Assembly (NCBI GenBank): GCA_039804105.1
Contig: JBDRZU010000001.1
Span: 736,001 to 800,000 of the forward strand
Direction: 5' to 3'
DNA from: a candidate division WOR-3 bacterium
Lineage (GTDB): Bacteria > Hydrothermota > 32-111
Length of the DNA stretch: 64,000 bases
The notes under the pieces were generated by a model. That model was not told the DNA's origin. It saw only the letters and a list, made by a program, of their open reading frames with translations, and ran no database searches. The translations under genes and the position numbers were made by a program. Numbering within the stretch: the stretch's first letter is position 1; every line of letters begins with the position of its first letter. Of the stretch, positions 1 to 63,670 are shown one piece after another.

Positions 1-366
1 AAGAACAGCATCAAATGATGGTAACCTTTTGAGTATATCATCGAATTCCATCCTTCTTTTTTCTATCTGATCCATCAAGGATGATGTATTCGACTGTGTA
101 ATTGATACTTCATCTGTTGTTTCCCCATTTCTATACATAACAGTCCCAATCTTCTCAATAGAAAGGTTGTACAATGCCTCTTCGCCTGTAAAAGAGTTGT
201 AAACAGCATGCTTTGGTAAACCTTTTTCAAAAAATATTTTTCCCTCTTTATTATCAATCTGAAAAATCAAAACACCTGTTCTCTCCCTCGATGATATCAA
301 ACTTATAAATTCAACTGGACTGAAGATTTCAAGATTCGCTTTTAAATCTACCTTTTCTTTATCCAT
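1..366 (-). CDS. DUF4388 (PATAN-like) domain protein, 3'-truncated by window edge
   Basis: Not in the ORF track; translated manually from ATG at 366: MDKEKVDLKANLEIFSPVEFISLISSRERTGVLIFQIDNKEGKIFFEKGLPKHA...GEEALYNL, open to base 1; pattern matches the DUF4388 N-terminus; overlaps the stop of the upstream ligase gene. Confidence 0.8.
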   Translation of the reverse strand, partial: MDKEKVDLKANLEIFSPVEFISLISSRERTGVLIFQIDNKEGKIFFEKGLPKHAVYNSFTGEEALYNLSIEKIGTVMYRNGETTDEVSITQSNTSSLMDQIEKRRMEFDDILKRLPSFDAVL

Positions 367-1094
367 TCCTCATCCTTATATTTTTGAATTAAATTCTGCA
401 ACTTTTCATCTTCAAAATCTAATTCAACTTCTTCCCATTCAAAATCTAACTCCCTAAAAAAAATTTTATAAAACACAGAAGATATATTTTCGATATTATA
501 AGTTAAACCTGTTAAATTTTCAATATTGTTTGAAAAATTTTTTCCATAAATTTTTTCCTGCGGAACAATACTCTCTTTTACAAGAATCGTTCCCTGTTGT
601 AAAAAATTTGTTTCTGAGAATGTTTGTGCACTTCCAACAATCTTTTCTCCTTTGTAACTGATCTCATAAACCGATTGAGATCCAAAACAGTTTGCGATAA
701 AGTTTTCCTTTTTTTCTCCCTGTGTTAGTTTCGCATCTATTTTTAACTCTTTAAAACCTTTGATAAAAATTTCTGCTATCCTTTTATACCTGTCTAAAAG
801 TCCATAATTTTTTCCAAAATGTTCAATGTTTCCAACAAAGGAATATGTCAGATCACCACTATGAAGAACTGCCCTTCCACCCGTTATCCTTCGTGTGATA
901 TCAATCTTTTCCTTTATAACATAATCATAATCGATACCAACATTGTACCTCTGATTGTATCCTATCGTTATTGAAGGTTTTGAAAATGAATAGAATCTAA
1001 AAAATATTGTATCAATATTTTTATAAGCCCATTCATCTATAGCCATATTTGTATAAACATCAAAAGCAGAGTAATTCAAAAAATAACCTTTCAT
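348..1094 (-). CDS. Lipoate-protein ligase A family / LipM-like octanoyltransferase (catalytic domain only)
   Basis: NMAIDE, RRITGGRAVLH, CF, KIVGSAQ motifs of the BPL/LPL family. Confidence 0.9.
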   Translation of the reverse strand: MKGYFLNYSAFDVYTNMAIDEWAYKNIDTIFFRFYSFSKPSITIGYNQRYNVGIDYDYVIKEKIDITRRITGGRAVLHSGDLTYSFVGNIEHFGKNYGLLDRYKRIAEIFIKGFKELKIDAKLTQGEKKENFIANCFGSQSVYEISYKGEKIVGSAQTFSETNFLQQGTILVKESIVPQEKIYGKNFSNNIENLTGLTYNIENISSVFYKIFFRELDFEWEEVELDFEDEKLQNLIQKYKDEEWIKKR

Positions 1095-1708
1095 TTTAAA
1101 ATTTTAAGCCAATCAGATAAAAGGAAATAGATTCTTCCAATAAGAAGTGAAATACGTGCCATCACAGTATAACCAAAAGATGCACCGAATGCAACCATGA
1201 TAAAGGTTATTCCTATTTTTGATCCCCATTTTAAAACACCTTTCTGTTCTTTTGAAAAATAGAAATAGATGAGTGTTGTTAAAACTCCAAAAATTATCAA
1301 AAAATTGTTAAAAGTTTCGAAATTGAAACCTGTTATCGTAACAAGTGTTGCTTGAACCTGTGGAAGTATAAATCCCTGTATCGCACCTGTAACACCAAGT
1401 CCAGCTCCAATACCAACTGTAAAAGCGATAGACCATCTTGAAAGCCAAGCAATATTAGGGAACCATCTAGTTAACATGATTATTCCAAAAAATGCAGGAA
1501 TCAACAGAATAAACTCTTTGTTTTTTATCATCGGATCAAGAAGCATTGGTTGTATAACATAAGCCCAAGTATAGATAAGCCAATATCCAGCTGTTATCCC
1601 AACATAGAGATGCTCTGCAAATTTATAGAAAGGGTTATCCTTATACAGAAAAGAATATATAAAAAGGGTCAAACCAGCAGCTATCCATATTCCAATGGTC
1701 GTTCCCAT
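1091..1708 (-). CDS. Uncharacterised polytopic membrane protein (module subunit D, copy 2)
   Basis: About 6 hydrophobic segments; YSFLYKDNPFYKFAE and FGYTVMARISLLIGRI shared with 4502..5107. Confidence 0.8.
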   Translation of the reverse strand: MGTTIGIWIAAGLTLFIYSFLYKDNPFYKFAEHLYVGITAGYWLIYTWAYVIQPMLLDPMIKNKEFILLIPAFFGIIMLTRWFPNIAWLSRWSIAFTVGIGAGLGVTGAIQGFILPQVQATLVTITGFNFETFNNFLIIFGVLTTLIYFYFSKEQKGVLKWGSKIGITFIMVAFGASFGYTVMARISLLIGRIYFLLSDWLKILK

Positions 1709-2544
1709 TATTTTCCTCCTTCTTTACTTTTTGTTCTCTTCTCTATGAAATACGCTATATTTCCTAAAATGATGAAAAGTATTATAACAAGATGAGAATA
1801 TGATTGCGATGCCATTCCAGCAACAGCAATATCAGGTTTACCAACAAGCACTTCATATTCAGCAGCTCCCTTCATTCCACCGACAAGTCCAACGATCTGG
1901 CCTGACTGATAGAAATAGTAAGCATCTGGAGCAGAAACAGCATTTAAAGCGAGTGCTATTTTCTGTTTGAATCTTCCTCCAGCATATTCGATCCAGACAA
2001 GATATGTTGCTCCTGCCTCAAGACCAACAAGAAGTGCTATATCGTTATAGTTATGCACATTCTTCATCATCGGGAAAGAATCGAGTGGAACATTTCGATA
2101 ATCAACTTTGAAATAATCTCTTATTTCCTTTCCAATTCCAACAATCTGTGCAACATATCCGGGTCTATAACCAAGGTTAATATAATCGACTCCATAAACA
2201 GCACCCATCTCCTTAGCAATCTTTTCAAGACCCATAGTTCCAAGGGGTGCTCCCAACTGCCATTGGACTATTAGTATAGGTTTCAGTTTATTTCTAAAAA
2301 GTTGTCTTAAAAGTGCTTCTAAAAATGGTTGTTGTTCAGGCATCGATGCTGCATCATAATCAATAGATATCATCACATTGCTACCTTCTGGTAAATTTTC
2401 GATATAATCATAAACATCCTTAACAGGTTTTGATGGAACAACTGGAAATTTTGGTTTCAAAAGTAAAGGAAGAATAACAACAATTGCAATGAATATATAT
2501 ATGAATCTTCTATCGACCTTTAAAAGTTTTAAAAAGATATTCAT
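1708..2544 (-). CDS. Uncharacterised two-TM protein with central soluble domain (subunit C, copy 2)
   Basis: N- and C-terminal TM helices; GLVGGMKGAAEYE shared with 5107..5973. Confidence 0.8.
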   Translation of the reverse strand: MNIFLKLLKVDRRFIYIFIAIVVILPLLLKPKFPVVPSKPVKDVYDYIENLPEGSNVMISIDYDAASMPEQQPFLEALLRQLFRNKLKPILIVQWQLGAPLGTMGLEKIAKEMGAVYGVDYINLGYRPGYVAQIVGIGKEIRDYFKVDYRNVPLDSFPMMKNVHNYNDIALLVGLEAGATYLVWIEYAGGRFKQKIALALNAVSAPDAYYFYQSGQIVGLVGGMKGAAEYEVLVGKPDIAVAGMASQSYSHLVIILFIILGNIAYFIEKRTKSKEGGK

Positions 2545-2553
2545 AATGACTCC

Positions 2554-3192
2554 TTATGAAAGATAACTTCTTTCAATACCTAAAATTATTCTTATTGAAA
2601 CACCCAAAGCACCGAGAGAAATTCCAAGTCCAATTCCTCTTTTTGCAGCCATCTGCGGAACCTGCATGATCCATTCCGTGAACTTTGGAAGATAAGGTGA
2701 AATCTGTTCTCCCAGAGGAACTCTTCCAAGCATAACTATTATCGCTGTTATCAGAAGAAGTGTAGCATCAAAATTTCTCGCTCTAAAAGCTCTATATGCA
2801 GCTGATGCTATAAAGAATGCAAGAAGAGAAAACATAGTTGCCTGAAGTGGAACTATAAAATAGTTGTATATGTATGTAAAATATGACTTATCATCAAACG
2901 CTGTTCCAAACCTGACAGTTTCAACTATTCCAACAACAACTGTAGCAACAAAACCAAAAATCAACACAAGAGAAAAAAACCAGTTCTCATCTTTTCTTTT
3001 GACTTTTCTAAAATGCATCCCTATCAAAGAATCAACTCCAAGAAGCATTGTAAAACCTGCTATTATCGAATACCAGTTCAAAGAAATTTTTTCTATGTCA
3101 CCAAAAGGTTTATGTGGAATAAAAAAAGAAACTATCATAATCATACCAACAAGAAAGGTTATAAAAATCGGTATACCTTTTCCTTTTAACAT
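2554..3192 (-). CDS. Uncharacterised polytopic membrane protein (subunit B, copy 2)
   Basis: FSLLAFFIASAAYRAFRARNFDATLLL...LGRVPLGE shared with 5970..6647. Confidence 0.8.
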   Translation of the reverse strand: MLKGKGIPIFITFLVGMIMIVSFFIPHKPFGDIEKISLNWYSIIAGFTMLLGVDSLIGMHFRKVKRKDENWFFSLVLIFGFVATVVVGIVETVRFGTAFDDKSYFTYIYNYFIVPLQATMFSLLAFFIASAAYRAFRARNFDATLLLITAIIVMLGRVPLGEQISPYLPKFTEWIMQVPQMAAKRGIGLGISLGALGVSIRIILGIERSYLS

Positions 3193-3203
3193 TTATCCTC
3201 CTA

Positions 3204-4493
3204 CTAAACCTGTAACAAGTTTATCAACCAATCGAATAGATTTTTTATTATTTCAATCCTCAACCCATATCCTAAAACTGAAAAAACAAAACCTATTATG
3301 ATCAAAAACATTATAAAAACTTTTAAAAGATCTTCTGCTGCTATTGAACCAAGCATCATCGGCTCTTTCTGCAAATAAACTGATGCAGCCATCATCTCTT
3401 CACCTATAAGAGTGTAATCACAAGCTGCTACAAAGAATGGTAACTGTGCTGTTTCAGTTGTTCCAGATATCTGAATCGCTCCTATCGAATGCCCGGTTTC
3501 AGCAAGGATCAAAGATTCCGCAAAGAAAAGACCCTGTAAAAATACAGCACCAGGTTTTTCTCTCATCATCATACCATCAACTCCTGCAGCGTATCCAAAT
3601 TGATCCTGAGTTATATACATTATATCGTTTTTATTGTATAGATCTGGTCTCCCAGCCTCAGTAAATGCCTCCTTCACAACTTCCTGTGCTGTTGTCATAA
3701 CAACTGGATCATATGATGGAACAAGAATCCTCGTTTCATAATCAGCAACCTTTTTCGCTACTCTTCCAAGTATCGTTAGACCTGCTATAGTGGGTATATC
3801 TGTGACATATCCTATTCCAAGAATATACATTATAGGTTTTCCCATTTCAGTACTTCTTCCAACTGCCTCTTCAACAGCATCAAGTCCGTTTATTTTTCTT
3901 ATATAAAGATCTTTTCCACTCTTTGCAAGATTCAAATAGTATAAGAAAACAAAAGCGATTATGATCAAAGAAACCAGAACAGGTATCCTAGAAAGGTTAA
4001 ACCATGATGATTTTGAAAATATTGCTTCTGTTTCTCCTGTTATGTAAAAAGTATCGTTTCCAAAAATATATACACCATTTTTCGAATATTCTGATCCGTT
4101 TGAAATCAATTTGTTTAAAAACTCTTCGTTGATCATATTTTTACTTAAAATTCCTGTATAGTAATAATTTGTATTATCTTTTACCCTTGAAGGTTCCTCT
4201 TCAGAACTCACATCTCTCACCTGCATTGAAGATACAAGAAGATCAGTTGCAACAACAATAACATTGTTTGAATCATCCCTTCTTAAAACTGTCAAAAACC
4301 AGTTTCCCAAAGTATCGGGGAAACACCAGTTGATCTGGATTCCTCCACCACCATCGTTTGGTATATCGTTCCCTGTAAGTTTAAAATCCAAAAAAGGGTT
4401 TTGATTTTCTAAAAAGATTAAACTATCACTTTCCTGAGAAAAGAGTAAAATTGAAAAAACTAAAAAAATCAAAAGAAGGGTTTTTTTTAACAC
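3204..4493 (-). CDS. DUF6754-like protein with signal peptide and extracytoplasmic N-terminal domain (subunit A, copy 2)
   Basis: Signal peptide, FN3-like region, TM, then IRKINGLDAVEEAVGRSTEMGKP...QLPFFVAACDYTLIGEE, C-terminal TM; GTG start with GGAGGAGAG SD. Confidence 0.75.
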   Translation of the reverse strand: MLKKTLLLIFLVFSILLFSQESDSLIFLENQNPFLDFKLTGNDIPNDGGGGIQINWCFPDTLGNWFLTVLRRDDSNNVIVVATDLLVSSMQVRDVSSEEEPSRVKDNTNYYYTGILSKNMINEEFLNKLISNGSEYSKNGVYIFGNDTFYITGETEAIFSKSSWFNLSRIPVLVSLIIIAFVFLYYLNLAKSGKDLYIRKINGLDAVEEAVGRSTEMGKPIMYILGIGYVTDIPTIAGLTILGRVAKKVADYETRILVPSYDPVVMTTAQEVVKEAFTEAGRPDLYNKNDIMYITQDQFGYAAGVDGMMMREKPGAVFLQGLFFAESLILAETGHSIGAIQISGTTETAQLPFFVAACDYTLIGEEMMAASVYLQKEPMMLGSIAAEDLLKVFIMFLIIIGFVFSVLGYGLRIEIIKNLFDWLINLLQV

Positions 4494-4501
4494 CTCTCCT
4501 C

Positions 4502-5107
4502 CTATTTAATAATTCCAAGCCAATCGGACAGAAGAAACTGTATTCTACCGATGAAAAGGGAAACTCTCGCCATAATAGTGTATCCGAACGCTGCACCAAA
4601 TGCAACCATTATGAATGTGATTCCAGCTTTCGAAACCTTTCCAATAAAACCTTTATGTTCGAGTGAAAAGAAAAAATAAACAAGAGTTGAAATAACTCCA
4701 ACAACTATGATCAAACTTCCAATATCAAGTTTTAATGGCATTGTGGCATAAATCTGTTTAAAAAGAAATTCAAAAGAGGATGGAACGGAAAGCCCTGTTC
4801 CAGCACCAACAACAAAAGCTATTGGTATTCTTGAAAGATATGCAACATTTTTGAAAAATCTTGAAAACATCAAAAGACCTAAAACAAGTGGTATCAGAAC
4901 AAGAAAATTTTTATCATAAACAAGTGGATTGAAAACTTTTGTGATTATCGTGTTATGCCAGTAAACCGATATTCCATAACCTATAGAGATTCCAACAAGA
5001 AGGTATTCTGCAAACTTATAGAAAGGATTATCTTTATATAAAAATGAATAGATTGCAAGAGTGAGTAATGCAGCTATCCATACCCAGAAATTCGTTGATA
5101 TAGCCAT
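4502..5107 (-). CDS. Uncharacterised polytopic membrane protein (subunit D, copy 1)
   Basis: Paralog of 1091..1708. Confidence 0.8.
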   Translation of the reverse strand: MAISTNFWVWIAALLTLAIYSFLYKDNPFYKFAEYLLVGISIGYGISVYWHNTIITKVFNPLVYDKNFLVLIPLVLGLLMFSRFFKNVAYLSRIPIAFVVGAGTGLSVPSSFEFLFKQIYATMPLKLDIGSLIIVVGVISTLVYFFFSLEHKGFIGKVSKAGITFIMVAFGAAFGYTIMARVSLFIGRIQFLLSDWLGIIK

Positions 5108-5973
5108 TATTTACCCTCCTTTTTTTTCTTAACAAAATATGCTATGTTACCAAGGATTATTAAAATTATAAAGAATATATGTGCTGAGGATTGAGCATCC
5201 ATTCCTATTGAAGCATCCTTTCTGCCACCATAAACATTCTTCTTATCAAGTAAATGTTCATACTCAGCAGCACCTTTAAGACCACCAAGCATTCCTATCG
5301 CCTGTTTTGATTGAAGATACGAATAATATTCTGCTGCTGAAACTGCTGTTGTTCCTATTCCCATCTTTAAACCATATCTACCGTTGGCATATATAAGCCA
5401 TGTTAAAACAACAGAACTTCCAGCGAGCTCAACCATAAGATTTATATCGTTATAATTTTTTATTCCATTCATTATTTCAAGTTCTGAAAGTTTATTCCCA
5501 TAGCCATCCTCATTGAATGTTTCTATTATATCTTCACCCATTTTCAAAACGACAGCACTTACTCCTGGAACATAAGCAAGAAGTGTAATATCCTTTCCAA
5601 GTTCTTTTGGATTATCAGGATTACTCTTGTTCCACTCTCTTAAAACATTATCTATAGCATCCTGAGCCATTCCAGCACCTTGTGGATAAAGTGTCACAAA
5701 AAGCACCCTTAAATTGTTTGATAGTGCATGTGCTGCAATTACTTTTGCCATCGGATGTAATTCAGCCATAGTTGAAGGATCATAATCAGCACCAATAAGA
5801 ACGACTCCACCTTCTGGAATCGAATCCTCTATGAAATCATAAATCGATTTTACCGGAGGTGTTGTTTTCATTGGAAATCCAACGGGGAATATGAAAGGAA
5901 TGATTATACACAAAGCGAGTACAAGATAGATCCATCTTTTATCAAGATTGTTGATAAAGTTGATAAATTTCAT
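5107..5973 (-). CDS. Uncharacterised two-TM protein with central soluble domain (subunit C, copy 1)
   Basis: Start corrected to MKFINF (ATGA overlap with upstream stop, GGAGGTGG SD); paralog of 1708..2544. Confidence 0.8.
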   Translation of the reverse strand: MKFINFINNLDKRWIYLVLALCIIIPFIFPVGFPMKTTPPVKSIYDFIEDSIPEGGVVLIGADYDPSTMAELHPMAKVIAAHALSNNLRVLFVTLYPQGAGMAQDAIDNVLREWNKSNPDNPKELGKDITLLAYVPGVSAVVLKMGEDIIETFNEDGYGNKLSELEIMNGIKNYNDINLMVELAGSSVVLTWLIYANGRYGLKMGIGTTAVSAAEYYSYLQSKQAIGMLGGLKGAAEYEHLLDKKNVYGGRKDASIGMDAQSSAHIFFIILIILGNIAYFVKKKKEGK

Positions 5974-6647
5974 TTTCCACCTCCGAGATATTTCCTTTCG
6001 ATTCCAAGGATTATCTTGATAGAGGTCGCTATGATTCCAAGTTGGACGCCTATGAGTATTCCCCTCTGTGCTGCCATATTTGGATATTTCAAGATCCATT
6101 CAACAACATCTGGAAGTCCTTTATAAATAAATTCTCCAAGTGGTACTCTACCGAGTGTAACTATTCCAGCTGTTACAAGAAGCAAAGTTGCATCAAAACT
6201 TCTCGCTCTAAACGATCTGAAGGCTGCTGATGCCATGTAGAAAGCAAGAAGTGAAAAAATCGTTGATTGCATCGGCATCTGCATATATAGATATGTATAC
6301 ATCAAAGGTGTTGTATCGGATGGTTTTACTGATGGAAAAATTTTCATCCAAAGAGTTGTTGGCATAAATGCACCACCAAATATTCCAAGTACCGCTGTAA
6401 CAAAAAGAGAGGAAAGCACTATTATCGAGTACTGCCAACCTTCAATTCTTCTTTTTATCTTTGTAATATGGAGTTCAACGGTTGATTGAACAGCAATTAA
6501 GTATGTGAATGCAGAAACAATTATCAACCAATCAAGCATCATGTTGTAAAAATTTTTCGATGCTGGATGTGGAACGAAAAATTGCAATATGAGCGCTATA
6601 CCAAATATCGCTGAAACTAAAAGTGGTAATGTTCTTCTTACAAACAT
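5970..6647 (-). CDS. Uncharacterised polytopic membrane protein (subunit B, copy 1)
   Basis: Paralog of 2554..3192. Confidence 0.8.
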   Translation of the reverse strand: MFVRRTLPLLVSAIFGIALILQFFVPHPASKNFYNMMLDWLIIVSAFTYLIAVQSTVELHITKIKRRIEGWQYSIIVLSSLFVTAVLGIFGGAFMPTTLWMKIFPSVKPSDTTPLMYTYLYMQMPMQSTIFSLLAFYMASAAFRSFRARSFDATLLLVTAGIVTLGRVPLGEFIYKGLPDVVEWILKYPNMAAQRGILIGVQLGIIATSIKIILGIERKYLGGGK

Positions 6648-6655
6648 ATAAACTC

Positions 6656-7861
6656 CTAACTTTTAAATATGAATCTTAACATTTCAAGAATCTTATCAAG
6701 AAAAACAAGATGCCCACCGGTTAACCATGAAATTATGAGAATGAAGAAATAAAGTGTGATCAAAATTATTATAAATCCTTTGAAATAATCTTGTGCTTTC
6801 AAAGTTCCAAGAAGAAGTGGCTCTCTAGAAAGGTAAGCACTTGCAGCGTAAAGTTCTTCTCCGATTATCGTGTAATCACATGAGGTAATAAAGAAAGGAA
6901 GTTGAGTAACAGCATCAGTACCTGCAATCTGAATAGCACCTGTTGTGTTTCCTGCTTCTGCCATGATAAGTGATTCTGCCCAAAACATTCCAAGTAAAAG
7001 GTTAGTTGCGGGTTTTTCTCTTGTCATTATACCAGAAACAGCGGCTGCGTATCCAAATTGGGAATCAGTTAAAAAGAAAATATCATTATCATTGTAAACA
7101 TCAGGTCTTCCCGCCTCTGAATAAGATTCCTTCACTACCTCTTTTGCAACAGTCATAACTATTGGGTCCCTGTTCGGAACGATCAGTTTTGTTTCATACT
7201 CTGCGATTTTTTTTGCAACTGGACCAAGGATGTTCAAAGAAGCGATCGTTGCTATATCTGACATTGTTGAAGACCCGGGAACATATAAAACGGGTCTTCC
7301 CATTTCGGTTGCTCTTCCAACCGCTTCATCGAGTGTGTCAAGTCCAGATATTTTTCTAACAAAAAGATCTTTTCCCTTTCTTACACTCTCAACAAGAAAA
7401 ACGATTATCGCCGTGTAAACTATTATCATCAAAAGTAATATGGTTTTTTCAGTTTTGAACAGGTTCGGTTTTGGAGATACTGAACCTGCGATCAAACATT
7501 TTTCAGATTCGTTACCTGAACTATCAGTTGTAGAAATATAGTATTCATATTTTTTCTGATATGATAACCCTTCATCAACTATCTTTACAGGAAAAGAGTT
7601 AAAGGTTTTTATGACTTTTAATGTCGTATCGTTTTCCTCTTTTCTGTAAAGTTTGAACATATAATTGTTACCTACAAGAATTTTCTGACAGGAAATTTCG
7701 AGTTTTGTTCCATCGTCGTCTCTCACATCCTTTATCGTGAACTCTTTTAAAATTGTTTGATCAACTTTCAAAACATTTTCATCTTTAACTGTTTCATTCT
7801 GAGAAAAAGATAACACAAACGATAGAAGTATTAAGATGAAAAATAAAGTTTTGTTTTTCAT
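6656..7861 (-). CDS. DUF6754-like protein with signal peptide and FN3-like ectodomain (subunit A, copy 1)
   Basis: VRKISGLDTLDEAVGRATEMGRP...QLPFFITSCDYTIIGEELYAASAYL; paralog of 3204..4493. Confidence 0.75.
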   Translation of the reverse strand: MKNKTLFFILILLSFVLSFSQNETVKDENVLKVDQTILKEFTIKDVRDDDGTKLEISCQKILVGNNYMFKLYRKEENDTTLKVIKTFNSFPVKIVDEGLSYQKKYEYYISTTDSSGNESEKCLIAGSVSPKPNLFKTEKTILLLMIIVYTAIIVFLVESVRKGKDLFVRKISGLDTLDEAVGRATEMGRPVLYVPGSSTMSDIATIASLNILGPVAKKIAEYETKLIVPNRDPIVMTVAKEVVKESYSEAGRPDVYNDNDIFFLTDSQFGYAAAVSGIMTREKPATNLLLGMFWAESLIMAEAGNTTGAIQIAGTDAVTQLPFFITSCDYTIIGEELYAASAYLSREPLLLGTLKAQDYFKGFIIILITLYFFILIISWLTGGHLVFLDKILEMLRFIFKS

Positions 7862-7871
7862 TTGACTCCTT

Positions 7872-8993
7872 TTATTCTTCGATTAATTCAACATTCGCTC
7901 TTGGAAGTATTATCCTTTTACCATCTTCGAATTCAAACTCAAGCACTCTAACATGTGCTTCGGTTTCGATTTTTTGTAACTGTGATGGAAGTCCAACTAC
8001 TCTTCCAATAGCACCAAAATATGGTTGCCTTATGATTCTTACTATAGAATTTATGTCCATTCCCATTTCAGCATGTTTTGATTCTTCAACAACGGTATCT
8101 ATATCATAGGTTACAATAACTTCAGGTCTCATAACACCAGCTCTTATCTGTGTTGCCCCATTTATTGAAGCTCTTTTTCCATCATTTTTTGAAAGTATTT
8201 CAAAAGTTTTCTTTGCCATCGTCATCTGACCAAAACCTTCTGTAACGATTACTGTGATTCCCTTCTCTTCTTGACCGGTTATTGCAACACCTATCTCTTC
8301 ACCAAGGAAATCTTTAAGATCCTTATCATCTATACCGCCAACGACTATTCCCAAAACACCTTTTTTTACACATTCATTCAAAACTTCACTCGTCACAAGA
8401 GAACCACCGATGACAATTTTTCCTTTGAGTTCATCTGTGATATCATTTTTTGTTAAAACATAGTCGGGTGATTTTGCAACAAGTTTCAACTCTCCCTTCA
8501 CTTCTCCACCGATTCCAAATATTCCCTGAATGAATGTAGCAGGTGTTTGAACAACTATTCCTTCATTCTCTATAACCTCTACAACTTTTCCGTTAACATA
8601 AGCATCTATTTCAACTTTTTTTGGTGGTTTCCTTAAAGTCAACATTCCTGTTATATCAGAATAGTTTTCAACTATTCCATCTATTGGTGAAGGAATAGAA
8701 GTTTTGAAAAGTCCAAAAAATCCTTTAGATTCTGCAATTATCTGATCTTTTTTTATATTTTCACCAACAGATACCTTTAAAAATGAAGATGCTTCTTTTG
8801 GTGGGACTCCAAGTTTTCCAGCAAGATTCAATCTTTCAACATCTCCAGGGAGTTCCGTTTTTGCAACTATATCATCTGCCTTTACTATATCTCCAACTTT
8901 TACAAGAACCTCTCCTTTTAAAGGTAATCTTCTTTCCTTTTTTACTATTGCTTTTTCAGTAACTTTTAAACCTGGTGTATATGAATGTGCCAT
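7872..8993 (-). CDS. Conserved hypothetical protein with biotinyl/lipoyl- or RnfC-like barrel-sandwich repeats and C-terminal KOW-like motif
   Basis: GEVLVKVGDIVKADDIVA and KVSVGENIKKDQIIAES...IPSPIDGIV; C-terminal VRIIRQPYFGAIGRVV. Confidence 0.7.
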   Translation of the reverse strand: MAHSYTPGLKVTEKAIVKKERRLPLKGEVLVKVGDIVKADDIVAKTELPGDVERLNLAGKLGVPPKEASSFLKVSVGENIKKDQIIAESKGFFGLFKTSIPSPIDGIVENYSDITGMLTLRKPPKKVEIDAYVNGKVVEVIENEGIVVQTPATFIQGIFGIGGEVKGELKLVAKSPDYVLTKNDITDELKGKIVIGGSLVTSEVLNECVKKGVLGIVVGGIDDKDLKDFLGEEIGVAITGQEEKGITVIVTEGFGQMTMAKKTFEILSKNDGKRASINGATQIRAGVMRPEVIVTYDIDTVVEESKHAEMGMDINSIVRIIRQPYFGAIGRVVGLPSQLQKIETEAHVRVLEFEFEDGKRIILPRANVELIEE

Positions 8994-9004
8994 AATTCCT
9001 CCAT

Positions 9005-10798
9005 TTATTTCTCAGGATAGACATTTAACGCTTTAATCCATTTTTTTAACTTCTCTACCCTTTCATTATCATTTTCAGGCAGATTGAAAGGTCTTCTTCC
9101 CCTTGCATCAACTATAACCCCAACAACTCCACCTTCAAGTTCCGCTTCTATCTCTTTACCTTTACCATTTCCAAGATCGAGCCCTTTTGATGGAGTGATA
9201 ATCGCTTTCACCTTTTTGTTGAGTTCAAGTGGAATAACTCCCATATCTCCAAAATTGAAACTGTATTCTTTTCCTTCAAATTTTATTTTTACAGCTTCCT
9301 GCCCTTCTTTTATGTTTCCTATCGGTGCAATACATGAACCCAACCTTATCAAACAATCCTTTTCAAAAACTTCAGTTGCTGCCTGTTCATGGACTGTTGA
9401 CAGAACACCAAGTTGTGGCATCATGAATATTGAATCAACAGTTAACATCGTTATCCCTTCAGGTAAAAAAGCATCTATCATCATCAAAGCTGACTGCACT
9501 CTTCTTGGAGCATGAGAAAGAACACCACCTGAACCAACGATTAGATTCAGTGTCAGCATGTTCACAAGCGTTTCACCTGTACTCGTTTGTTCGAAAGCAT
9601 CGGAAATTGTTCTTTCCTTCTGGACTCCCTTTAAACCAACAGCCATCGTCTTATGTTGTTCTAATGCCAATCTTAATGCTTCTCTTGATATCGCCTGTTC
9701 TATCTGTAATTCATCAAGAGTTGATGGAATGGTTGTTGGTCTTATCATCTTATTTCTTATTCTGTTCCTCAAATCCTTTTCATCCATATGAAATGGAACC
9801 CATCTCATTATATTTTTTAAACCTGCTTCTTTCACAACATTTGATATAGAGTAACTCATTCCCAGGTTTGCTGAAACTGTTCTATTGAAAGTGTTTTGGA
9901 AATAGGAGAATACATCTGTTGTTGCTCCACCTATATCAACACCAAGAACTTCTATCTTATCCCTTTTACCAATCGTTTCTATCAAAAGTCCAACAGCACC
10001 AGGTGTTGGCATAATTGGTACATCAGTCATATCCATAAGTTTTTTGTATCCAGGTGCCTGAGCCATCACATGTTCCATAAAAAGATCATGTATCTTATCT
10101 CTTGCTGGCTTCAAATTTTCTTTTTCAAGTGTTGGTCTTAGATTTTCAACTATGTAAAGTGCTGTTTTCTTTTCAAGTCGTTCTTTTATTTCTTCAACAG
10201 CTTTATTGTTTCCAGCATATATAACAGGGAGTTTGTATCCAGCACCAAATCTTGGTTTCGGATCAGCTGCCTGTATAATCTCTGCGAGTTGAACAACATG
10301 TGTTATAGTCCCTCCGTCGGTTCCACCTGAAAGAAGTATCATATCGGGTCTTAAGGTTCTGATCCTTTTTATCCTCTCATGATCCATTCTCTTATCGTTT
10401 GTTGCTATAACATCCATCACTATTGAACCAGCACCGAGTGCTGCTCTTGCTGCTGATTCTGCTGACATTTTATCCACAACACCGGCAACCATCATCTGTA
10501 AACCACCACCTGCTGATGATGTTGAGATATAGATATCTACACCATCACCTTCTGCTTTCTCTCTCTTTATTATTTTGTCTCCATCAAGAATTTTTATCTC
10601 AGCAAGTTCTTCAACCTCTTTTATAGCGTTGAGAACACCTTTTGTAACATCCTCATAAGGTGCCTCAACCGTTGTTGGTGCTTCACCTCTAACTATCAAA
10701 CGATACTCATTATCTCTTTTCTCTATTAAAATAGCTTTAGTTGTGGTGGATCCACAATCGGTTGCAAGTATTCGTGTGATTTGATCCTTCTCTTTCAT
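9005..10798 (-). CDS. GlmL/MutL (glutamate mutase L)-family ASKHA-fold ATPase
   Basis: ILATDCGSTTTKA (phosphate 1), SSAGGGL, ALGAG, LLSGGTDGG, IMPTP, VDIGGATTDV (phosphate 2), RTVSANLGM. Confidence 0.8.
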   Translation of the reverse strand: MKEKDQITRILATDCGSTTTKAILIEKRDNEYRLIVRGEAPTTVEAPYEDVTKGVLNAIKEVEELAEIKILDGDKIIKREKAEGDGVDIYISTSSAGGGLQMMVAGVVDKMSAESAARAALGAGSIVMDVIATNDKRMDHERIKRIRTLRPDMILLSGGTDGGTITHVVQLAEIIQAADPKPRFGAGYKLPVIYAGNNKAVEEIKERLEKKTALYIVENLRPTLEKENLKPARDKIHDLFMEHVMAQAPGYKKLMDMTDVPIMPTPGAVGLLIETIGKRDKIEVLGVDIGGATTDVFSYFQNTFNRTVSANLGMSYSISNVVKEAGLKNIMRWVPFHMDEKDLRNRIRNKMIRPTTIPSTLDELQIEQAISREALRLALEQHKTMAVGLKGVQKERTISDAFEQTSTGETLVNMLTLNLIVGSGGVLSHAPRRVQSALMMIDAFLPEGITMLTVDSIFMMPQLGVLSTVHEQAATEVFEKDCLIRLGSCIAPIGNIKEGQEAVKIKFEGKEYSFNFGDMGVIPLELNKKVKAIITPSKGLDLGNGKGKEIEAELEGGVVGVIVDARGRRPFNLPENDNERVEKLKKWIKALNVYPEK

Positions 10799-11127
10799 TT
10801 ATCCTCCTTAATATCCTTCTTGTTTCTCTTATTTGTATTTTCAAATTCCTCAATATATTTTATTAGTTTCTCAACAGAATCTCTTTCTTCAAAAATCAAA
10901 GATGCTTCACGGTATTCAGATATGTTGAAAAATGTTAAAATAATTGGTTCCAAAAATATCATTATCTGAGCACTTATAAAATTCATAGGTTTTATCGATT
11001 CCAGAAACATTATCGCTGGAGCGGTTAATCCCCTTTTGACTATACTTACTGCAATCTTTTTTAGAATCTCCTCTTTTCTTTCAAGAGGTATCTCTTTCGG
11101 ACTTACAGGCTGAAAACTCTTATCCAT
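10795..11127 (-). CDS. Small conserved hypothetical protein
   Basis: Overlaps both neighbours; IVKRGLTAPAIMFLESIKPMNFISAQ; start taken at MDKSF. Confidence 0.7.
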   Translation of the reverse strand: MDKSFQPVSPKEIPLERKEEILKKIAVSIVKRGLTAPAIMFLESIKPMNFISAQIMIFLEPIILTFFNISEYREASLIFEERDSVEKLIKYIEEFENTNKRNKKDIKEDK

Positions 11128-12571
11128 TATTTTCCCTATACCAGTTAACATAAAGATTTTTTAAAGCGTATATATCATCAGGTCTTGAAACTGGAGTGTT
11201 TGATGGAGCATTTTTAACTTTTTCGGGTTCATTTTTTGCTTCCTCATCTATTCTTTTCATCGCTTCGATAAAACCATCAAGAGTTTCTTTTGATTCAGTT
11301 TCTGTTGGTTCAATCATGATCGCCTCAGAAACTATAAGCGGGAAATAAACTGTTGGTGCATGGAATCCATAATCGAGCAGACGTTTTGCTATATCGAGTG
11401 TTGTTATATTGTAGTCCTTTTTATGCTTTCTTCCACTGAAAACGACCTCGTGCATCGTTTCTGTCTTATATGGTAAATCGTATATATCCTGAAGTTTTCT
11501 TTTTATATAGTTTGCATTCACTATCGCCATCTGAGTTGCTTCAGTAAGTCCATCTCTTCCCATTATTTTCAAATATGCCCATGCTCTCACCATTATGTTA
11601 ACATTACCATAAAAAGAATGCAATGAACCTATCGAGTTTTTAGGATAATCAAGGTAATATTTCCCATTTTCAAATTTCACAATGTATGGTGGTAAAAATT
11701 CTTTCAACTTTTCAACAACTGCAACACCACCAGCACCAGGTCCACCACCTCCATGTGGTGTCGAAAATGTTTTATGCAGATTCAGATGCAGAATATCAAA
11801 ACCTATTTTACCTGGTTTGACGATTCCCATCAAAGCGTTCATGTTTGCACCGTCCATATATATCAGGCCACCTTTACCATGAACTATTTCGGAAATCTTT
11901 TCTATTTTACTTTCAAAAATTCCTAAAGTGTTGGGATTCGTTATCATTATTCCTGCAGTATCTTCATCCATGTTTTTTTCAAGATCCTCAAGATCTATCT
12001 CTCCTGAACTGTCCGATTTGATCTGCACTGATCTAAATCCTGATAGAGTTGCTGAAGCAGGATTCGTTCCGTGTGCTGAATCTGGAATAAGAATTTTTGT
12101 TCTTTTTTCACCTTTACTTTTAAAGTAATCACTTATTATCATCATTCCAGCGAATTCTCCATGAGCACCTGCAACTGGCTGTAGAGAAATTCCATCAAAA
12201 CCTGTAACCTTCAAAAGCATATCCTGTAATTCATACATTATTTCAAGTATACCCTGAACATCCTCTTCATCCTGATATGGATGAAGTTTTGTAAATTTTG
12301 GATTTGAAGAGATCTCCTCATTTACAACAGGATTATATTTCATCGTACATGATCCTAACGGATAAAAACCTTTCTGAAGATGATGGTTTTTATTTGATAA
12401 CAAAACAAAATGTCTTAAAACATCAATTTCAGATACTACTGGTAGATTTAAATCCTGATTTCTAAGATTTTCCTTGATACAATCTGAAACCTCAATTGGG
12501 AAACTATTTTCAGGTAAAGAGACGATATTTGAATTTTCATCTGATAATTTAAATATCAATTTATCGTACAT
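11120..12571 (-). CDS. gcvPB: Glycine dehydrogenase (decarboxylating) subunit 2
   Basis: YPLGSCTMKYNP, SAHGTNPASA, LNLHKTFSTPHGGGGPG (PLP lysine), IEPTETESKETLD. Confidence 0.95.
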   Translation of the reverse strand: MYDKLIFKLSDENSNIVSLPENSFPIEVSDCIKENLRNQDLNLPVVSEIDVLRHFVLLSNKNHHLQKGFYPLGSCTMKYNPVVNEEISSNPKFTKLHPYQDEEDVQGILEIMYELQDMLLKVTGFDGISLQPVAGAHGEFAGMMIISDYFKSKGEKRTKILIPDSAHGTNPASATLSGFRSVQIKSDSSGEIDLEDLEKNMDEDTAGIMITNPNTLGIFESKIEKISEIVHGKGGLIYMDGANMNALMGIVKPGKIGFDILHLNLHKTFSTPHGGGGPGAGGVAVVEKLKEFLPPYIVKFENGKYYLDYPKNSIGSLHSFYGNVNIMVRAWAYLKIMGRDGLTEATQMAIVNANYIKRKLQDIYDLPYKTETMHEVVFSGRKHKKDYNITTLDIAKRLLDYGFHAPTVYFPLIVSEAIMIEPTETESKETLDGFIEAMKRIDEEAKNEPEKVKNAPSNTPVSRPDDIYALKNLYVNWYRENNG

Positions 12572-12600
12572 AATCTGCTCCTTAAATTTTTTAAAGAATT

Positions 12601-12629
12601 ATTTTATATTATTAAGATAATAATGTCAA
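12601..12629 (-). promoter_or_regulatory. Sigma70-type promoter of the gcvPB operon
   Basis: TTGACA-17 bp-TAAAAT on minus strand. Confidence 0.7.
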
Positions 12630-12719: not shown

Positions 12720-13490
12720 ATGAAAAAAATCTTGATCACAATTCTTGTAATTATAACAGTTCAAGTGCTGTTCTCTTATGATTACTATTTACAAAACGAT
12801 GATGGAACTTTCAATTACTTCTGGTATGGGAATGTCAGAAGAGCATCAAAGTATTATGTTTCAGACACTTGTACCTTGAAAATGGTTTATTGGGGAAGAT
12901 ATACCAAACGAACAGAAATCGACACGATATTGATTTTTAACGACAATTCTGGTTTCCCTGGAAATGTGATTTACAGTGATACACATGCGGTAAACACTAA
13001 CAGCACACCTATGATAGTTTCAGATACAGTGTCAACCCAAGTGCTGGTATGCGGAACATTCTATGTGGGAATGTATGCGAGATGTCAGGATCAACCAGCA
13101 AACGCTTTGTGTTACTTTTTGTCAGATTCCACTCCTTCTTTTAAAACATTCTGGGATAGCACAGGAACATGGGTGGTTCAAACAAGAGGAGATTATATAA
13201 TTCATGCAAAAGTTTCTGGTCCATACGGTATAAGTTTAAGATTGTATGAAGAAAATATTCTTGGAGAAAAAGGAACAAAGAGTAATTTCAGTTTTCTTGT
13301 CAATGAAAATTCAGTTGTATTAAACAATATTAGAAGTTTTACTATAATAGATAAAAATGGAAGAAAAATACTCGATGGTATTTCAAAAAATGTTGTACTC
13401 GATTTAACAAAATTTAAAAGTGGTATTTATTTTCTTGTAGTAAAAGATCTACACAATCAAACACATAAAAAGAAGTTAATAAAATTCTAA
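12720..13490 (+). CDS. Secreted protein with T9SS type-A-like C-terminal sorting domain
   Basis: Signal peptide; C-terminus IIDKNGRKI...LDLTKFKSGIYFLVVK...KKKLIKF. Confidence 0.7.
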   Translation: MKKILITILVIITVQVLFSYDYYLQNDDGTFNYFWYGNVRRASKYYVSDTCTLKMVYWGRYTKRTEIDTILIFNDNSGFPGNVIYSDTHAVNTNSTPMIVSDTVSTQVLVCGTFYVGMYARCQDQPANALCYFLSDSTPSFKTFWDSTGTWVVQTRGDYIIHAKVSGPYGISLRLYEENILGEKGTKSNFSFLVNENSVVLNNIRSFTIIDKNGRKILDGISKNVVLDLTKFKSGIYFLVVKDLHNQTHKKKLIKF

Positions 13491-13584: not shown

Positions 13585-15501
13585 TTAGGGGATTATCGTT
13601 ATCTTTTTTGCACTTTTTTCAAAACCTGTTTGAAGAATCACGAGATATATCCCGGGAGAAACTTTATTTCCACTTGAACCTATATTTCCATTTAAAAAAG
13701 CACCGTTCAAATTTGGTACTCCGTTCCATTCAAAACCCCTGTTATAAACTCCAGGAAGTACATTTTCTTTTTCCGCATAATATACAAGTTTACCATCAAG
13801 TGTGTAAATGTATAACATAAGATTCGATATCTTTCTTTTGATCTCAAAAGGAATTATTAGAGTTCCCGTTTTTAAAGAATATGGATTTGGATAAGGGGGA
13901 AGTAATCTACTTGAATTTATCTCGTAAACATCCTCAGTGTCAGCATACATCACTGCTTTATAAAAATCTGGAACTCCATAACCAACGATCTGATTCGGGT
14001 ATTCTGAAAAATATGTTGTATCAGGTATCAAGGAAGCAAATGGCTTTTTTGCTGTTTTTGTTAGTGCCTCTTTCACTTTTGCAGGTGTCCAGTCAGGATG
14101 TGCCTGCAAAAGAAGAGCACAACCTGCACTCACGAGTGCAGTTGATCCACTCGTTCCAAGTATATAATTAAATGAGTTCGAACTATCAGATACAGTGTAA
14201 GGCCATTCAGCCAACGCAACAACTTCAGGTTTATATCTTTCAATTGTTGAATCAAGGTAAACATCATATGTCGGACCAGTCACAGAATATTGAGAATATA
14301 CCATCGAATCATCGACTCCACCAACAGTTAAAACAGAATATGCATCTGCGGGTGCAATGATTGAAGTATCAGCTCTATCGATACCAACATTCTGTAAATT
14401 CCCGATAGCGTTTACAACAAGTATTCCAAAAGAATCTGCCGCTATGTTCGCTGCCTTTGAAATTTTTGTTGAATCACCTGTCATAACAGAATATGGATAC
14501 CAATCCTTATATCCAACAGAACTTGAAATTATATCCGCTCCTAAAGAATCAGCCCATTCGACTGCTGCAATCCAGTTATCCTCTTCTGAAACGATTTCAG
14601 AATCTGCTATCTCAGTCTTCGCTATAATATAAGAAGCACCAAACGCTGGTGAAATCAACTCTCCCGAATAATAAGAAGCCATAAGACCAAGCATTTTGGT
14701 CCCGTGACTCAATTGGTTTATTTCATCAGGAGAACCACCATAAACTATTCCAGCAAAATCTTTGTTCTCAATAAAGTCATAGGATGCAATGATATTCACA
14801 TCCTTTAAAGCTCTATGAATAGGTTTACCTGTATATATAAAGGTTGTTTCAAAAGGTATTGAGGAAGAATCTATAACCATCGATGAATCTTTCAACATTA
14901 AAACACCTGTATCAAAAAGTGCGATTACAACATCTTTCCCGGTGTATCCTTTGTTGTGTAGAGTGTTAACATTCAACATTTTTATCTGATTATAAGAGTA
15001 ATCACCATAATAGTAAACATCATCGGTTTTAATATTTTTGAAACTTTTACTTTTCACAGCATCTTTTATAAGAAAATCTTTTTTCTTCTTTATTGAAGAT
15101 ACTGGTGATATCGATTTTACAAATGAAAGTTGTGACAATTTTTCTATATCCTCTTTTTCAACATAGATTGAAACAGCGTTAAGCCATTTTGAAACTTTTT
15201 CAACTTTATAACCTTTATTTTCGAGAATCGAAATATACTTTTGACTAACAGGAAGATCAAGATATCTGTACTCAGGTAGATTTTTGTTTCTTCTTCTCTT
15301 TTTCGATTTTTCAGTTACATAGGAAGTATTGCTTTTAAAATAATTAGCCATATTTTCTTTCGTGTTTATCCCCTTATCTTTAAAAAACACCCATACTTTC
15401 ACTTTGCCTGAAATTTTCGCTTCGTTTGAGAAAATGTTAATGGGAAATGAACAAAAAACAAAAACGAGAAAAATCAAAATGTATAAATAATTTTTTTTCA
15501 T
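13585..15501 (-). CDS. Secreted S8 (subtilisin-like) serine peptidase with C-terminal FlgD-Ig/T9SS-like domain
   Basis: ALFDTG, HGTKM and GTS catalytic motifs; I9-like propeptide; C-terminal YPNP...IYTLDGKLV...PGIYLV; start set at MKKNY after AGGAG. Confidence 0.9.
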   Translation of the reverse strand: MKKNYLYILIFLVFVFCSFPINIFSNEAKISGKVKVWVFFKDKGINTKENMANYFKSNTSYVTEKSKKRRRNKNLPEYRYLDLPVSQKYISILENKGYKVEKVSKWLNAVSIYVEKEDIEKLSQLSFVKSISPVSSIKKKKDFLIKDAVKSKSFKNIKTDDVYYYGDYSYNQIKMLNVNTLHNKGYTGKDVVIALFDTGVLMLKDSSMVIDSSSIPFETTFIYTGKPIHRALKDVNIIASYDFIENKDFAGIVYGGSPDEINQLSHGTKMLGLMASYYSGELISPAFGASYIIAKTEIADSEIVSEEDNWIAAVEWADSLGADIISSSVGYKDWYPYSVMTGDSTKISKAANIAADSFGILVVNAIGNLQNVGIDRADTSIIAPADAYSVLTVGGVDDSMVYSQYSVTGPTYDVYLDSTIERYKPEVVALAEWPYTVSDSSNSFNYILGTSGSTALVSAGCALLLQAHPDWTPAKVKEALTKTAKKPFASLIPDTTYFSEYPNQIVGYGVPDFYKAVMYADTEDVYEINSSRLLPPYPNPYSLKTGTLIIPFEIKRKISNLMLYIYTLDGKLVYYAEKENVLPGVYNRGFEWNGVPNLNGAFLNGNIGSSGNKVSPGIYLVILQTGFEKSAKKITIIP

Positions 15502-15556
15502 AAAATTTTCTCCTTTAAAAATCATAACAGAAGAATATAAAATTTCAAGAATATTT

Positions 15557-38824: not shown

Positions 38825-38844
38825 ATTTTTTCCTTTGTTGATAT

Positions 38845-38917
38845 GGCGGCGGAGATAGAGGCCTTTTACTGCTGCTTCTTTTCAGACCTGACAGGGTTCA
38901 AGACATATCTCCCCGCG
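38845..38917 (-). ncRNA. ffs: Signal recognition particle RNA (small 4.5S type)
   Basis: GAACCCTGTCAGGTCTGAAAAGAAGCAGCA helix-8 motif in a long stem, immediately upstream of dnaX. Confidence 0.88.
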
Positions 38918-38959
38918 TGTTTTTATAATACCATTTATAAAACTATTTTCAAGAAGGAA

Positions 38960-48990: not shown

Positions 48991-48997
48991 CTTATAA

Positions 48998-49104
48998 CTC
49001 CTTCTTCCATCCTGACTTTACAGTCGGCACCGTAATTTCAACGGTTCTGCTTTCGCTCGCGGGCTTTACCGCCGATCGGGATTTTCACCCAGCCCCGAAG
49101 GAAA
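48998..49104 (-). promoter_or_regulatory. FMN riboswitch (RFN element)
   Basis: TTCGGGGCTGGGTGAAAATCCCGATCGGCGGTAAAGCCCGCGAG...CCGACTGTAAAGTCAGGATGGAAGAAG upstream of the rib operon. Confidence 0.95.
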
Positions 49105-49108
49105 TATT

Positions 49109-63588: not shown

Positions 63589-63670
63589 TGCGAAAGGGGG
63601 GAGTTGAACCCCCACAGTGTTACCTACTGGATCCTAAGTCCAGCGCGTCTGCCAATTCCGCCACTTTCGC
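63589..63670 (-). tRNA. tRNA-Leu (anticodon TAG), CCA not encoded
   Basis: GCGAAAGTGGCGGAATTGGCAGACGCGCTGGACTTAGGATCCAG...GGGGGTTCAACTCCCCCCTTTCGCA cloverleaf with long variable arm. Confidence 0.95.

Follow-up and report, generated by a model that had tools for sequence, protein, structure and literature searches.

Does the GlmL-like ATPase encoded in a densely packed bacterial operon belong with the membrane proteins encoded beside it, and if so, what might it do for them? The question is raised by a 64,000-nucleotide stretch from a candidate division WOR-3 bacterium (assembly GCA_039804105.1, contig JBDRZU010000001.1, positions 736,001 to 800,000 of the forward strand; this whole stretch is referred to as the window). 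At its start, a minus-strand operon encodes a small protein of 118 amino acids (aa) (small118), the ATPase (MutL597), a 373-aa protein (S373) and two successive copies of a cassette of four membrane-protein genes, A-B-C-D, whose A subunit belongs to family DUF6754. A preliminary description had proposed that the ATPase and its partner energise or regulate a multi-subunit membrane complex. The seven families are very likely to form one system. Many phyla have retained or lost their genes as a set, and none of the systems studied so far matches them; they therefore probably represent a new kind of membrane machine. More tentatively, small118, MutL597 and S373 could constitute a single cytoplasmic ATPase module serving two interchangeable A-B-C-D membrane modules, the whole being an ATP-driven machine of the cell envelope.

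Genomic linkage and shared distribution

Relatives of DUF6754 make up at least 8000 clusters, which their sources name only ‘hypothetical’ or ‘fibronectin type III domain-containing’. When one genome per species was scanned, at least 597 stretches proved to encode the family and 78 loci were returned (numbered here with the prefix L), in which all open reading frames (ORFs) were searched with the window proteins. The titles of these records name WOR-3, Stahlbacteria, Cloacimonadota, Eisenbacteria, Fermentibacteria, Zixibacteria, Latescibacterota, Poribacteria, Ignavibacteria, Scalindua/Brocadiaceae and Methylomirabilis. The order A-B-C-D was kept in 59/64 loci with at least 3 kilobases (kb) downstream of an A gene, the five exceptions being L044 (ABDC), L045 and L059 (A only), L069 (BCDA) and L072 (split B). 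Tandem cassettes occurred in 10/78 loci, as two copies in six and three copies in four. When the 1451 ORFs flanking the 78 loci were clustered, no neighbour family was present in more than seven loci.

S373 lies directly upstream of an A gene in 12/78 loci (L005, L014, L015, L016, L021, L049, L055, L058, L060, L064, L065 and L080), an adjacency that spans records of several differently labelled groups. Among Planctomycetota the two genes are side by side in 18 of the 25 genomes that have both, as counted from coordinates. Elsewhere the ATPase genes stand apart. Five large genomes with an unlinked cassette all encode S373 at another place (5/5, expectation value (E) 1e-146 to 1e-163), and MutL597 orthologues of 62–67% identity are likewise found in 5/5 genomes where the modules are unlinked; three Cloacimonadales genomes hold small118-MutL597-S373 as a separate unit. 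The genes around unlinked ATPase modules were unrelated housekeeping genes.

Presence and absence of the two modules run closely in parallel. Across 120 genomes of the window's phylum, DUF6754 was detected in 105 and S373 in 103; both were present in 102 and neither in 14, leaving DUF6754 alone in three genomes (G064, G107 and G118) and S373 alone in one (G040, 77% complete). All 14 double negatives come from one genus (g17; for example G016, G030, G051, G071 and G110). In five g17 genomes that are 91–95% complete, MutL597 was found in none (0/5) and D had no credible match, the single weak one containing four stop codons. Rnf is present in both g17 genomes that were searched for it. Of 101 Planctomycetota genomes, 27 have DUF6754 and 25 have S373, all 25 falling within the 27, and 74 have neither. 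Presence or absence of the two families therefore agrees in 116/120 genomes of the window's phylum and in 99/101 of Planctomycetota. Co-occurrence of these families without mutase genes, which the preliminary description had named as a result in favour of its proposal, was observed both in gene order and in shared presence and absence in two phyla.

It is nevertheless conceivable that the ATPase module and the cassette have no relation to each other and simply happen to be inherited by the same lineages. They are unlinked in 43/52 loci with upstream room, and two chromosomes of Poribacteria carry the ATPase gene and S373 apart from each other as well as from the cassette. Such an explanation does not sit well with the adjacency, in the same order, in several differently labelled groups, with agreement in 116/120 and 99/101 genomes, or with the finding of S373 without DUF6754 in 0/101 Planctomycetota genomes, and we consider it quite improbable. 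Two of the observations made here do, however, weigh against the machine proposed above. S373 precedes A in only 9/52 loci with at least 3.8 kb upstream, so that the modules are unlinked in most genomes, and the joint absence in the window's phylum must be counted as a single event, as genomes of one lineage are not independent.

The ATPase and its partner protein

MutL597 (597 aa, 9005..10798, minus strand, as are all genes of the operon) is an ASKHA (actin/Hsp70-fold) ATPase and the sole member of Pfam family PF13941 (‘MutL’) in this genome, matching the profile with E 5.8e-128 and 427.9 bits over profile positions 1–450. Its nucleotide-binding motifs (phosphate-1, phosphate-2 and adenosine) are invariant in 17/17 aligned sequences (T13-D14-G16-S17-T18-T19-T20-K21, D288-I-G-G-A-T-T-D295 and G422/G424/G425, respectively). 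Measured against the curated NCBIfam models, it falls below all three cut-offs, scoring 228.9 against 475 for NF040745 (GlmL/MutL), 217.8 against 600 for NF040744 (Or-4) and 165.3 against 204.05 for TIGR01319. The intact nucleotide-binding motifs support the earlier identification of the protein as an ATPase.

GlmL/MutL and Or-4 share with MutL597 the Pfam family, the ASKHA fold and the ATP-binding motifs. MutL597 differs from them in its scores, in a C-terminal extension of about 115 aa, in being always paired or fused with S373, in occurring without nearby mutase genes, and in sharing its distribution with a membrane cassette. Is it, all the same, a true GlmL/MutL helper of a B12-dependent mutase, with the membrane genes as bystanders? 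The PF13941 match would agree with this, as would the label ‘glutamate mutase L’ that databases attach to its relatives. Yet the three scores fall short of their cut-offs, no glutamate mutase E subunit (PF06368) was found in this 85%-complete genome, the operon contains no mutase genes and the three genes for B12-binding domains in the genome lie far away, and no neighbour family recurs in more than 7/78 loci. This explanation is barely credible, and members of this subfamily are probably mislabelled as ‘glutamate mutase L’.

The gene for small118 (10795..11151) directly precedes the ATPase gene wherever the module is seen whole. The protein has no Pfam or NCBIfam family and has a hydrophobic or amphipathic hairpin and a tail rich in Lys, Arg and Glu. 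In the alignment there is one weak hydrophobic stretch, and because this stretch holds conserved charged residues the protein may not cross the membrane; whether the sequence includes a true membrane span is uncertain.

S373 (7872..8993) is known in its sources only as ‘hypothetical’ or ‘KOW domain-containing’, and its family comprises 1,109 representatives at E up to 1e-30 among 1.84 billion. A structure model (predicted local distance difference test (pLDDT) 87.2, predicted template modelling score (pTM) 0.73) divides it into three domains, for which the Z values are middling, of a size commonly met, and indicate folds only. Residues ~48–125 form a barrel-sandwich hybrid (RnfC, Z 7.4 over 68 aa, root-mean-square deviation 3.3; NqrA, Z 7.2 over 64 aa, root-mean-square deviation 2.2), residues ~130–300 a swivelling beta/beta/alpha domain (RraA, Z 8.3 over 125 aa; Enzyme I of the phosphotransferase system (PTS), Z 8.1 over 110 aa; rifampin phosphotransferase, Z 7.6), and residues ~310–373 a KOW/SH3-like barrel (NusG, Spt5, NdhS and PsaE, all Z ~7). 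In this model the barrel-sandwich and SH3-like domains appear to resemble domains of subunits located at the surface of membrane complexes (RnfC, NqrA, NdhS, PsaE), which would fit the docking proposed below. By sequence the matches are fainter: Biotin_lipoyl (20.5 bits, cut-off 22.1) and RnfC_N (18 bits, cut-off 25.6) are both sub-threshold, and the best hit of the S373 profile among PDB sequences has E 0.043.

Two catalytic roles that these folds might bring to mind receive little encouragement from the alignments. In a lipoyl or biotinyl domain the modified lysine lies at the tip of a hairpin; the candidate in S373, K45, is Arg or Tyr in 11/12 sequences, and lipoylation, being unlikely because no Lys is conserved at the lipoyl position, was rejected. 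The swivelling fold of residues 130–300 is shared with RraA and with enzymes that use phosphoenolpyruvate (PTS Enzyme I, rifampin phosphotransferase). However, unlike the swivelling phospho-histidine domains, that of S373 contains no invariant or nearly invariant His among 66 sequences, and a phosphoryl relay is unlikely for this reason.

That MutL597 and S373 work together is concluded from gene fusions. Among 120 long S373 relatives listed, about 50 are full-length MutL597-S373 fusions of ~1000 aa with a PF13941 domain, and 44–51% identical to S373 over its whole length. A second, more distant fused form (28–36% identity to S373) lacks the KOW barrel. It is found in three Cloacimonadales genomes beside the standard three-gene module, as ORFs of 954–1032 aa with 35–38% identity to MutL597 (L094 6163-9258, L095 5962-8823 and L096 6097-9033). 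A TetR-family gene lies near the distant fusion in two of these three loci. Further, a longer form of S373 (~435–475 aa, for example P0409, P0419, P0421 and P0455) aligns with the profile over two separate stretches and may therefore have one more barrel domain at its N terminus. A candidate fusion of S373 with DUF6754 (P0241, 707 aa) was rejected; it keeps a signal peptide in mid-protein and ends inside the core, and is probably a read-through or an assembly error.

An ATPase and partner so closely associated might act on the membrane complex without powering it. As a GlmL-like chaperone or gatekeeper, MutL597-S373 would assemble, repair or regulate the complex (it might, for example, prise apart the alpha/beta portion of the DUF6754 subunit), and A-B-C-D would perform an ion-coupled or passive job of its own. 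The nearest named relatives, GlmL and Or-4, are indeed annotated not as motors but as accessory proteins, the two modules often lie apart, and a swivelling domain is also present in diol dehydratase reactivase, a chaperone-like ASKHA enzyme. On the other hand, MutL597 orthologues from other phyla are 61–73% identical, an unusual degree of conservation for an accessory factor; Pfam detects no cofactor-binding motif in A; and wherever the cassette has been lost the ATPase module is gone too, although this last pattern fits either reading. A chaperone of this kind is unlikely, if less so than two unrelated systems.

Membrane subunits and the proposed use of ATP

The topology of the four membrane subunits was predicted from hydropathy and charge averaged over alignments, and so by sequence only. 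A1 (6656..7861; Pfam DUF6754, E 2e-117, 391.2 bits, cut-off 27) and A2 (3204..4493; E 9e-112, 372.8 bits, same cut-off) are predicted to comprise a signal peptide, an ectodomain of fibronectin type III (FN3), a transmembrane (TM) helix, a very conserved stretch of ~200 aa and a final TM helix; since a strongly positive loop precedes it, the conserved stretch is probably cytoplasmic. B1 (5970..6647) and B2 (2554..3192) are polytopic, with about six predicted TM helices and both termini inside. C1 (5107..5973, 288 aa) and C2 (1708..2544) would each span the membrane twice, a TM helix being followed by an acidic periplasmic domain of 227 aa and by a second TM helix with invariant H265 and N276. 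D1 (4502..5107) and D2 (1091..1708), again polytopic, have about six hydrophobic stretches, presumed TM helices, the last carrying invariant R181 and R188.

None of the sequence comparisons tied these proteins to a family of known function. No Pfam or NCBIfam family was found for B, C or D; a Pfam scan of 58 B, 62 C and 62 D aligned members at E up to 5 gave scattered hydrophobic noise only; and against PDB sequences the best profile match of C had E 0.22, while A gave FN3 alone. Profile comparison likewise detected no homology among the cassette families (B with D 2% probability, A with C 0.5%). In the ESM Atlas, C2 led only to unnamed clusters and the A1 core had no usable match among named ones. 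A fold search with the AlphaFold model of A1 confirmed the FN3 domain (residues 36–135, Z ~10) and matched no other part of it, although the search hardly probed the DUF6754 core. That model is only moderately confident (pLDDT 69.7, pTM 0.38, weakest at residues 266–350 with pLDDT 46–63), and for this reason the DUF6754 core is given no fold name.

ABC (ATP-binding cassette) transporters were rejected as an identity, there being no P-loop subunit among the operon proteins by Pfam (no match to ABC_tran, PF00005, in 14 proteins). An anti-phage defence system was rejected too: PADLOC gave no match for 10/11 proteins, and the one weak match, of small118 (E 7e-4), was taken as chance.

A redox-driven ion pump of the Rnf/Nqr type was also considered. 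The subunits of such pumps are similar in size and topology to the proteins studied here, and S373 would correspond to RnfC/NqrA, A to RnfD, C to RnfG, B to RnfE and D to RnfA. The barrel-sandwich domain of S373 superposes on the N-terminal domains of RnfC and NqrA, as described above, but no homology extends to the membrane subunits, nor did any cofactor motif come to light. Comparison of B and D by hhalign with 22 RnfA/E sequences of the same phylum gave probabilities of 0.5% and 0.7%, and none of 58 B and 62 D sequences matched PF02508 (RnfA/E, NqrD/E) at E values as high as 5; in general no Rnf, Nqr or FMN_bind match was seen up to that value. FMN_bind and 4Fe-4S Pfam domains were absent from 11 proteins, and B, C and D contain no invariant Cys. 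Moreover, a standard RnfE/A gene pair is encoded at another place in this genome and likewise in 39/41 genomes of the phylum. A divergent pump of this type is therefore highly improbable. As for the earlier remark that no transporter signature could be recognised, the Pfam and NCBIfam searches and the negative comparison with RnfA/E likewise placed the membrane subunits in no known transporter family.

The two cassettes of the window are old paralogues rather than the product of a recent duplication, as judged from their sequences. A1 and A2 are 43% identical overall, with 49% in the core and 30% in the ectodomain, and the remaining subunits are 48% (B), 37% (C) and 54% (D) identical between cassettes. 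When 97 DUF6754 cores were placed in a FastTree tree, rooted at the midpoint and considered apart from its support values, A1 and A2 fell into separate deep clades, both of which also contain sequences from other loci. Tandem copies in Ignavibacteria loci behave similarly, the three being distributed over three separate clades. Within the window's phylum S373 is mostly single-copy, against 1–5 DUF6754 matches per genome. DUF6754 is present in 201/201 genomes of the phylum to which locus L067 belongs, mostly with 4–6 matches each, and among model genomes it was found in 0/14.

The outer parts vary. N-terminal extensions of A measure ~700 aa in Cloacimonadota and 640 to ~1020 aa in three of the Planctomycetota genomes examined, and have no Pfam family; DUF6754 subunits with large N-terminal parts include L115 2950-6792 and 9926-13768, L116 3398-7246 and L027 7859-10780. 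One B subunit, in a record labelled Ignavibacteria (L060 11181-12956), carries an insert of FG-GAP repeats (E 5e-28), which would support the predicted topology of B if, as assumed, it is placed in a loop predicted to lie outside.

In the mechanism that we tentatively prefer, MutL597 would bind and hydrolyse ATP, and S373 would be its fixed partner and adaptor. Together they would bind a membrane module from the cytoplasmic side, the extremely conserved DUF6754 core being the likeliest docking site, and the ATP cycle would be passed through the conserved helix bundle of B and D to the periplasmic side, to appear there as movement of the 227-aa domain of C and of the variable ectodomain of A. 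Docking of actin-fold proteins on membrane partners is familiar from PilM-PilN, FtsA, MreB-RodZ and GspL, with which the present system may be compared in pairing an ASKHA protein with bitopic and polytopic membrane proteins; PilM, FtsA, MreB and GspL belong to other ASKHA families, and we know of none with a partner like S373. MacB, FtsEX and LolCDE, which are mechanotransmission ABC systems, served as the working analogy: they too combine a cytoplasmic ATPase, a small membrane part in the form of a helix bundle, periplasmic domains that do the work and variable outer domains. They differ in that the motor proposed here has the actin/Hsp70 fold, the membrane subunits are of four different kinds, and Pfam finds neither a P-loop ATPase nor an FtsX-type domain. 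By this analogy mechanotransmission, that is, work on something in the envelope, is favoured, though tentatively, over the pumping of solutes, because old paralogues have kept their membrane cores alike but differ in their outer domains.

Solute pumping would require a primary active transporter of a new class, in which a shared ASKHA motor powers substrate-specific A-B-C-D permeases and C supplies, in its periplasmic domain, a tethered binding protein. There are precedents for a single ATPase serving many permeases in some ABC and ECF (energy-coupling factor) systems, and the evidence from co-occurrence and fusion would apply to such a transporter equally. So would the presence of one motor with several paralogous membrane modules, a C domain that is anchored at both ends and periplasmic by the positive-inside rule, and the invariant Arg, His, Asn and Glu within hydrophobic stretches. 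Nevertheless, the membrane cores are 48–54% identical in paralogues that split before the phyla did, whereas the ectodomains differ, which is the opposite of what is usual in substrate-specific permeases. Similarity to transporter or binding-protein families was not found, and to our knowledge no transporter is driven by an ASKHA protein. On balance a transporter is somewhat unlikely, although it is the most serious competitor of the mechanotransmission mechanism.

To the two points raised by the distribution data, the membrane subunits add three more that tell against mechanotransmission by a single motor. The conserved polar and charged residues within hydrophobic stretches (R181 and R188 of D, H265 and N276 of C, E296 of A) would also suit a path for substrate or ions, and to that extent would favour a transporter. 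The fold and membrane side of the DUF6754 core are uncertain in the available model. Finally, contact between the ATPase module and the membrane subunits is inferred, as are docking, the coupling of energy, and what the work is done on and in which direction; a complex prediction of S373 with residues 158–362 of A1, run without controls, scored 0.00 and says nothing either way.

In its boldest form, the proposal is a new class of membrane machine powered by an ATPase of the actin/Hsp70 fold, as opposed to the P-loop, P-type or rotary kinds, in which one cytoplasmic motor (MutL597-S373) would serve several interchangeable modules and variable outer domains would choose the target. It could represent a core envelope function in many little-studied phyla; this is put forward with the same reserve as the mechanism itself. 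If an actin-fold ATPase does drive the membrane modules, ATP would be coupled to membrane work in a new way. Whatever the mechanism, seven families are conserved like core machinery and none has a tested function, which points to a piece of cell-envelope or membrane biology that is missing from our picture of a large share of uncultured bacteria. A literature search on the system (DUF6754, GlmL-like and MutL-like ATPases), covering texts other than supplementary tables, found nothing among the papers listed. Cultured relatives among Ignavibacteria probably carry the system, by inference, and would make it open to experiment.

Operon layout and neighbouring genes

The operon comprises 14 genes that run head to tail on the minus strand from 12571 to the window start. 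From gcvPB to the DUF4388 gene, the junctions measure -32, -4, 11, 10 and 8 base pairs (bp), then an ATGA overlap, then -1, 8, 11, 9, -1, -4 and -19 bp, and GGAG-type Shine-Dalgarno sites stand upstream of 11/14 starts. The start of C1 was corrected from that of the longest ORF to 5973, which gives a protein of 288 aa and the ATGA overlap with B1. The dense packing described initially, with every junction overlapping or at most 11 bp, is thus as stated for all 14 genes. Its extent is larger than was then supposed, since the string of genes continues past the window start, beyond DUF4388.

A sigma-70-like promoter (TTGACA-17-TAAAAT, 12601..12629, minus strand) precedes gcvPB, with 11/12 consensus matches and the joint best score in the region. 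It is located in the only real intergenic gap of the operon region. Promoter-like sites are, however, not enriched (60 seen, against 53.8 expected by chance from shuffled sequence), so that the match alone is little proof.

The first gene of the operon, gcvPB (11120..12571), encodes glycine dehydrogenase subunit 2 (NF003346, E 2e-211, 702.9 bits, cut-off 441). Towards its other end lie a gene for a protein of the LplA/LipB family (348..1094) and the DUF4388 gene (1..366, identified by Pfam), which encodes 297 aa and has only its 5′ part inside the window. The former had been called a lipoate ligase; it does have the LplA/B catalytic domain (PF21948, 95.6 bits), and that domain only, but it scores far below the NCBIfam cut-offs for lipoate ligases.

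These flanking genes seldom accompany the system elsewhere. A gcvPB gene is adjacent in 5/78 related loci and an LplA-family gene in 3/78, while DUF4388 stands next to the cassette in none (0/78). The ATPase module and cassettes are linked to neither gcvPB nor an LplA-family gene in most genomes, and the position of the module between gcvPB and the ligase gene is therefore a feature of one lineage only. A link with amino-acid catabolism, suggested earlier as one possibility, is not sustained as a general feature by these counts, and gcvPB, although it heads the operon, is probably not a functional part of the machine. The genes for glycine cleavage are split in this genome, gcvH and gcvPA lying about 204 kb from gcvPB (G000:C1:949815-953600). 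An ORF of 141 aa with a B12-binding domain follows about 1.7 kb beyond gcvPA.

Past the window start, the string runs from DUF4388 into four genes without a Pfam family (256, 225, 129 and 116 aa) and, after a gap of 74 bp, into ExbB-ExbD-ExbD-TonB (L114 2073-7367). On its other side the operon is bordered by two ORFs, both with hydrophobic N-termini, at 12720-13490 (plus strand, 256 aa) and 13585-15525 (minus strand, 646 aa). RNA elements of the window, all on the minus strand, include a flavin mononucleotide (FMN) riboswitch (48995-49106), a small signal recognition particle (SRP) RNA (38840-38919) and a tRNA gene (63589-63670).

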